Assembly: GCF_003334815.1 (NCBI RefSeq)
Contig: NZ_QOWO01000044.1
DNA: 29,333 nt
Origin: Escherichia coli
GTDB lineage: Bacteria; Pseudomonadota; Gammaproteobacteria; Enterobacterales; Enterobacteriaceae
Strand: one strand, 5' to 3'
Shown: positions 23,374-23,490 of the stretch, one piece after another
How positions within the stretch are numbered: the stretch's first letter is position 1
Layout: each line of letters opens with the position of its first letter
The notes under the pieces: model-generated
Seen by the model: the letters and a program-made list of their open reading frames with translations, nothing else
Databases searched by the model: none
What the model was told of the DNA's origin: nothing
Position numbers and translations under genes: made by a program

Positions 23374-23400
23374 AAAAAAAGCCTCCACTGGGAGGCTTTC
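23374..23400 (-). terminator. pheST attenuator terminator
   Basis: On the minus strand, AAAGCCTCC-CAGT-GGAGGCTTT followed by a T-run, between pheM and pheS. Confidence 0.7.
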
Positions 23401-23445
23401 AGGCGCTGTTTTCCGTTTCTCTTCTCACGCGCTAGCCTCCTGGAT

Positions 23446-23490
23446 TCAGGTGCTAAAGTAAAAAAAGAAGCGGAAAATAGCAGCATTCAT
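23446..23490 (-). CDS. pheM: pheST operon leader peptide (14 aa, [14 protein letters not shown])
   Basis: Minus-strand ATGAATGCTGCTATTTTCCGCTTCTTTTTTTACTTTAGCACCTGA; five Phe codons in 14, typical of an attenuation leader. Confidence 0.85.

Follow-up and report, generated by a model that had tools for sequence, protein, structure and literature searches.

The pheM leader of the Escherichia coli pheST operon, a long-known transcription attenuator, and a polymorphic ERIC-like insertion downstream of it

Introduction

Does a 14-codon reading frame with five Phe codons, followed by a hairpin and a run of T, constitute a Phe-responsive transcription attenuator, and if so, to which operon does it belong? 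The question is raised by the DNA upstream of pheS in a stretch of 29,333 nt from E. coli, here called the window. It can be answered with near certainty: the locus is pheM, which precedes the E. coli pheST(-ihfA) operon and acts as a ribosome-mediated transcription attenuator responding to charged tRNA-Phe. This leader and its attenuator have long been known in E. coli K-12, and the element is in this respect an ordinary one. The original descriptions are reportedly those of Fayat et al. in 1983 and of Springer et al. in 1983 and 1985 (J Mol Biol).

In more recent literature, pheM is described as a Phe-rich leader under attenuation (PMC5371410, which cites Trudel et al., 1984, BBA 782:10) and a pheMST attenuator reporter has been employed (PMC3831192). 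The response of pheM to Phe-tRNA in vivo is taken from such literature; the folds described below are in silico predictions. The leader ORF and all parts associated with it are located on the minus strand, as read over 23800..23000(-), and their positions in the window are listed in Table 1.

Table 1. Features of the pheM-pheST region, in window coordinates.
Feature	Position	Strand	Description
rplT	23969..23613	-	Upstream neighbour of pheM
rpmI-rplT intrinsic terminator	23573..23604	-	AAAGAGGGAG-CTAGT-CTCCCTCTTT, then TCGTTTC; read from the sequence
Candidate sigma-70 promoter of pheM-pheST	23529..23557	-	TTGACT (23557..23552), 17-nt spacer, TTCAAT (23534..23529)
pheM leader ORF	23446..23490	-	ATG at 23490, 14 sense codons, TGA stop at 23448..23446
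Phe codons of pheM	23475-73, 23469-67, 23466-64, 23463-61, 23457-55	-	
Predicted protector (1:2) structure	23405..23481	-	5′ strand 23481..23458 (Phe codons) with 3′ strand 23428..23405
Predicted antiterminator	23391..23440	-	GGAGGCUAG.GCGU (23440..23427) with GCGCCU...AGCCUCC (23406..23391)
Attenuator terminator	23374..23400	-	RNA hairpin GAAAGCCUCC-CAGU-GGAGGCUUUU, then T run
Palindromic ERIC-like mobile element, 145 nt	23210..23354	-	Inside the 212-nt attenuator-pheS spacer; insertion relative to the empty allele
pheS	23162..22179	-	ORF list and RefSeq annotation of identical DNA
pheT	22164..19777	-	ORF list and RefSeq annotation of identical DNA
ihfA	19772..19473	-	ORF list and RefSeq annotation of identical DNA
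Regulated genes pheS, pheT and ihfA as a block	19473..23162	-	

Identity of the leader

The region 22120..24220 of the window is identical to positions 1797900..1800000 of E. coli K-12 MG1655 (NC_000913.3), with 0 mismatches over 2101 nt. In K-12, the gene b1715, annotated as 'pheST-ihfA operon leader peptide', is pheM; it falls on 23446..23490 of the window, between rplT and pheS. The peptide encoded here is identical to NP_416230.1, the product of b1715, and to WP_001386830.1. The comparison with the annotated K-12 pheM, which the earlier note had named as a check, therefore ends in an exact match: the DNA is the same over the 2101 nt compared, as are the ORF, the terminator and the flanking genes, and no difference was found. 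A 561-nt query around the leader finds a match of at least 95% identity in every one of the 5426 complete E. coli genomes. The earlier note had held the ORF to be too small for ORF callers to report. This is correct for generic callers but not for RefSeq, which annotates identical DNA with 'pheM: pheST operon leader peptide PheM' and with a 'Phe leader region'.

On the minus strand, the genes follow one another as thrS, infC, rpmI, rplT, pheM, pheS, pheT, ihfA. At the far end of this series, a match to the enterobacterial sRNA STnc540 is found at 19373..19531(-) in Rfam (67 bits, with a gathering score of 38), and it overlaps the ihfA 3′ end as well as the terminator that follows.

The leader itself matches the Rfam family RF01859 (Phe_leader) at 23496..23372(-) with 75 bits (E = 3.1e-11; gathering score 55 bits), over positions 1-125 of the 125 of the model and without truncation. 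The RF01859 model derives mostly from pheL, the pheA operon leader, and K-12 pheL reaches 132 bits compared to the 75 bits obtained here. Moreover, sequence is shared between the pheL and pheM leaders at the Phe run and at the terminator (GCCTCCC...GGC.TTTTTT). These similarities would also be expected if the locus were a copy of the pheA-type biosynthetic leader pheL instead of the synthetase leader pheM. That reading is extremely improbable, as the peptide is identical to annotated PheM, while pheS and pheT follow downstream, rplT precedes upstream, and K-12 pheL is located elsewhere, between raiA and pheA. Because RF01859 is mostly modelled on the pheA leader, the assignment to pheM is based on the PheM peptide and on the order rplT-pheM-pheS-pheT, both of which are unambiguous; the gene context and the exact identity to b1715 rule out pheL.

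The Phe-rich reading frame and its conservation

Read directly, the pheM ORF is ATG AAT GCT GCT ATT TTC CGC TTC TTT TTT TAC TTT AGC ACC TGA. Translation of 23490..23443(-) bears out the five Phe codons in a 14-codon ORF that had been claimed from the sequence: Phe is found at codons 6, 8, 9, 10 and 12, four of these within codons 8-12. With 5 Phe in 14 codons, pheM is a short translatable ORF rich in codons for the regulating amino acid.

A Phe-rich ORF by itself is weak evidence, being statistically not unusual in a T-rich stretch. The window contains 372 ATG ORFs of 8-30 codons, two of which have five Phe, namely pheM (14 codons, 36% Phe) and an ORF at 8783(-) (22 codons, 23% Phe). When the window is shuffled within 500-nt blocks, an ORF with at least five Phe arises in 26% of the trials. 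This frequency would suit the view that the short ORF arose by chance and that the hairpin behind it is a constitutive terminator or a stabiliser, with translation and termination uncoupled. Such a view is extremely improbable, since Escherichia shares the ORF, the position of its stop codon, the GGRGGCU motif that follows and the terminator with genera such as Yersinia, Dickeya, Serratia and Edwardsiella. In addition, rplT has its own terminator upstream, and attenuation data have been published (PMC5371410; PMC3831192). It is the combination of the Rfam match, the fold z-score of -5.06 and the conservation across genera that takes the ORF beyond chance and supports pheM as a regulatory leader.

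The conservation was examined by a search for PheS in species-representative genomes, yielding 80 loci from Escherichia, Salmonella, Citrobacter, Enterobacter, Erwinia, Pantoea, Yersinia, Dickeya, Pectobacterium, Serratia, Hafnia, Edwardsiella and other genera. Enough upstream sequence was available for 78 of them, and 76 leaders were distinct. An ORF with the core FR[F/S][F/S]F[Y/D]F is present upstream of pheS in all 78 testable Enterobacterales loci, nearly always as FRFFFYFS[T/A]. The leader ORF is thus conserved, a point on which the earlier note had let its reading depend. The N-terminus of the peptide is variable (MNAAI, MHAAI, MMHVVT, MNAN). Nucleotide changes within the codons of the Phe run are very rare, even at synonymous sites, which points to a constraint on RNA pairing besides the one on the codons. 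The distance between Phe6 and the stop codon is 27 nt in 76 of 76 leaders, and each of the 76 distinct leaders has a terminator of 8-10 bp.

Signals for transcription initiation and termination

The GC-rich hairpin with T run that had been noticed at 23374..23400, within the region 23374..23490, was recovered at exactly these coordinates, both by a terminator scan and by reading the sequence. The scan reports GAAAGCCTCC-CAGT-GGAGGCTTTT at 23400..23377 with 10 pairs (5 G-C) and more T after it; the run of seven T spans 23380..23374. The hairpin alone has a predicted energy of -13.2 kcal/mol. The leader ORF is hence separated from the first structural gene by an intrinsic terminator with a 10-bp hairpin and 7 T, at a distance of 212 nt from the pheS ATG. 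A further terminator separates rplT, which ends at 23613, from the pheM leader. It was not reported by the terminator scan owing to the T-tail rule of the scan.

The promoter of pheM-pheST probably corresponds to the TTGACT-17-TTCAAT arrangement between this rplT terminator and the ORF. In a relaxed comparative scan, the best -35 hexamer is TTGACA or TTGACT in 57 of 79 leaders and the best -10 hexamer is TTCAAT or TTTAAT in 59 of 79, with a spacer of mostly 17 nt. A strict promoter scan of 23000..24000 found no sigma-70 site; its rule demands A at position 2 of the -10 hexamer, so that TTCAAT is missed. In the E. coli strain CDE2901-yvys (locus L003), an IS200C element (tnpA) is present between the rplT terminator and pheM. 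This insertion could displace or replace the pheM promoter.

Alternative structures of the leader RNA

The 149-nt leader has a minimum free energy (MFE) of -56.7 kcal/mol (z = -5.06), and 0 of 200 shuffled sequences are as stable. In the MFE fold, the segment with the Phe codons is paired in a protector structure, of which the 3′ strand reads GUGAGAAGAGAA-A-CGGAAAA-C-AGC, and apical hairpins at 23456..23432 occupy part of the antiterminator 5′ strand GGAGGCUAG. The antiterminator pairing sequesters the 5′ arm of the terminator. As an isolated segment, the antiterminator has a predicted energy of -17.0 kcal/mol, compared to -13.2 kcal/mol for the terminator hairpin alone.

A co-transcriptional situation was modelled by ending the transcript after the terminator loop, at which point the 3′ arm has not yet been made, and by imposing a ribosome footprint. 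With the footprint on any of the Phe codons, the antiterminator is the MFE structure of the nascent transcript. The antiterminator is absent, and the 5′ arm of the terminator free, when the leader carries no ribosome or when the ribosome has reached the stop codon. Both alternative pairings on which the earlier note had rested its case therefore exist and switch with the position of the ribosome, giving, in silico, a mutually exclusive antiterminator that requires ribosome stalling at the regulatory codons. In the full-length equilibrium fold with a ribosome on the Phe codons, the terminator is still the MFE structure and no switch is seen. That full-length equilibrium folds always retain the terminator would agree with a chance ORF followed by an uncoupled hairpin. 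It does not count against attenuation at pheM, because the choice between the structures is kinetic and is made during transcription.

The predicted switch is shared by the other leaders. With a ribosome on Phe10, the 5′ arm of the terminator pairs with GGRGGCU(U) at 7-16 nt after the stop codon in 76 of 76 predicted folds, except that the predicted partner span in one leader (L052) begins 4 nt after the stop. Variants of this upstream motif with G instead of A (GGGGGCU) retain the pairing via G-U. In 69 of the 76 leaders, the terminator arm is predicted to be free in both the ribosome-free state and the state with a ribosome at the stop; in the remaining 7 of 76, at least five bases of the arm are paired upstream even without a ribosome. 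Column-wise covariation in a MAFFT alignment is weak (26 pairs, 2 of them compensatory; consensus -7.4 kcal/mol), because the element is near-invariant and because MAFFT lets the register slip in the AGCCUCC arm, i.e., the 5′ arm of the terminator. Folding of each sequence separately was used in place of column covariation. The RNAalifold consensus does retain the protector stem, with one compensatory pair (UA in 34, UG in 33 and CG in 9 leaders). The Phe-responsive transcription attenuation that had been proposed from the sequence is thus supported by the ribosome-dependent folds, by the conservation of the leader and by the identity to K-12 b1715.

Proposed course of attenuation

Transcription would start approximately 30 nt upstream of the ORF, followed by the synthesis of a leader of approximately 150 nt. 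When Phe-tRNA-Phe is plentiful, the ribosome is expected to translate the 14 codons and to reach the UGA stop. Counted from the first base of this codon, GGAGGCU begins 8 nt downstream, and the terminating ribosome would therefore, judging from the size of its footprint, cover this motif, although the exact geometry is likewise deduced. With the antiterminator 5′ strand unavailable, the AGCCUCC/GGAGGCU hairpin and the U run would form and transcription would halt before pheS. An untranslated leader should give the same outcome as high charging, its Phe-codon segment pairing with 23428..23405. When Phe-tRNA-Phe is scarce, the ribosome would stall on the five Phe codons and keep the protector stem open. 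The freed GGAGGCUAG.GCGU could then pair with GCGCCU..AGCCUCC before the 3′ arm of the terminator exists. Once the antiterminator has formed, the polymerase would continue into pheS, pheT and ihfA.

The leader RNA may also be subject to processing. RNase III cleaves within the pheM attenuator structure in vitro, and the downstream message decays faster in the wild type than in an rnc mutant (PMC5371410). The RNA-seq signal given in the same paper at K-12 position 1799278 corresponds to 23498 in the window. The long protector stem, and possibly the hairpin of the 145-nt element as well, are plausible RNase III substrates. Both are long duplexes, and the control of pheST might accordingly be seen as mainly post-transcriptional, with RNase III cutting the long leader helices, possibly including the palindromic insert, and mRNA decay following. 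This is very improbable: in PMC5371410, the cleavage is regarded as turnover that adds to the already known attenuator, and a model of decay alone would assign no function to the conserved geometry by which Phe codons, stop codon and antiterminator are linked. Transcription attenuation thus stays the preferred explanation for the leader.

Comparison with related regulators

The pheL leader of the pheA operon follows the same logic as pheM, with a short ORF containing a Phe run, a protector stem, an antiterminator and a terminator of the GCCUCC type. The sequences of pheL and pheM are recognisably similar, and both score above the gathering score of RF01859. On the other hand, pheL encodes a different peptide of 15 aa, is located in the raiA-pheL-pheA locus and regulates a biosynthetic enzyme, not a tRNA synthetase. 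A direct comparison of pheM (23372..23496(-)) with K-12 pheL (L087:1099-1224) shows that they belong to the same Rfam model and have a near-identical GCCUCCC terminator arm. This resemblance in sequence and structure suggests common ancestry of the two attenuators or convergence.

Other leaders from Enterobacteria, i.e., trpL, hisL, thrL and leuL, work in a similar way to pheM: stalling at the regulatory codons selects the antiterminator over the terminator, and termination results when the ribosome is at the stop codon or the leader is not translated. In pheM, the regulatory codon is that of Phe and the genes under control encode an aminoacyl-tRNA synthetase, so that the loop feeds back on tRNA charging. 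The T-box leaders of pheST in Firmicutes likewise respond to the charging of tRNA-Phe by antitermination of pheS and pheT transcription. In contrast to pheM, they lack a leader peptide, the uncharged tRNA being read directly. Here, Rfam gave no T-box match, neither at the gathering score nor at E <= 1.

An ERIC-like insertion between attenuator and pheS

The spacer between the attenuator and pheS contains a 145-nt element that lies outside the attenuator and is co-transcribed with pheST only on read-through. Empty sites are found in strain B19429 and in the E. coli representative of GTDB (locus L005). Since 644 of the 5426 E. coli genomes cover less than 80% of the query, the element is absent from approximately 12% and present in approximately 88% of them. 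The sequence forms an imperfect palindrome whose terminal stem has 17 bp; the predicted fold is at -55.7 kcal/mol (z = -3.66). The element is dispersed: BLAST places it at up to 8 sites per genome (median 5). Further copies are located at rlmL-ycbX and at qseG-qseE, and the alignments stop sharply at the boundaries of the element.

These properties, i.e., a palindrome with terminal inverted repeats, multiple intergenic copies and a presence/absence polymorphism, are those of ERIC/IRU elements, although the length of 145 nt exceeds the canonical 127. The centre of the element is identical at 17 of 21 positions to an ERIC core rebuilt from the standard ERIC-PCR primers ERIC1R and ERIC2, a score that is equalled by 7 of 1000 shuffles. 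K-12 has roughly 20 ERICs, and the approximately 5 copies per genome of the present element are fewer. It may be a diverged ERIC subfamily or a different named repeat. Literature searches for a 145-nt repeat (RSA/IRU/BIME, and ERIC with pheS or ycbX) returned no name for it. Rfam hits in the spacer to mir-5444, sX9, SraG and mir-4716 are far below their gathering scores and were rejected as chance matches.

In other species, the same spacer contains canonical ERIC cores (GAATCCCCAGGAGCTTAC...GTAAGTGACTGGGGTGA) at loci of Yersinia (L065, L066, L068) and Citrobacter (L010, L016, L017, L035), and an ERIC-like palindrome in Serratia oryzae (L084). The inserts of these genera differ from that of E. 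coli, and their presence at the equivalent position suggests that such elements land there repeatedly.

ERICs are mobile elements known to be co-transcribed and to be capable of altering mRNA decay (PMC3184786). For the present locus, it is a rather doubtful proposition that the attenuator-pheS spacer is a recurrent landing site for ERIC-type elements and that the hairpin could change the processing or stability of pheST mRNA.

Significance

With respect to pheM, there is no new biology at this locus: it is a curated K-12 gene with a textbook-type attenuator that ties the synthesis of phenylalanyl-tRNA synthetase to the charging of tRNA-Phe. The correct recognition of a regulatory ORF of 14 codons from raw sequence serves as a positive control. 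The polymorphic ERIC-like insertion is the only material that is mildly new. If the proposition on the spacer holds, PheRS expression below the same attenuator would not be equal in E. coli lineages that have the insert and in those that lack it. An insertion that affects what becomes of the mRNA would be a natural source of strain-to-strain variation in the expression of an essential synthetase.
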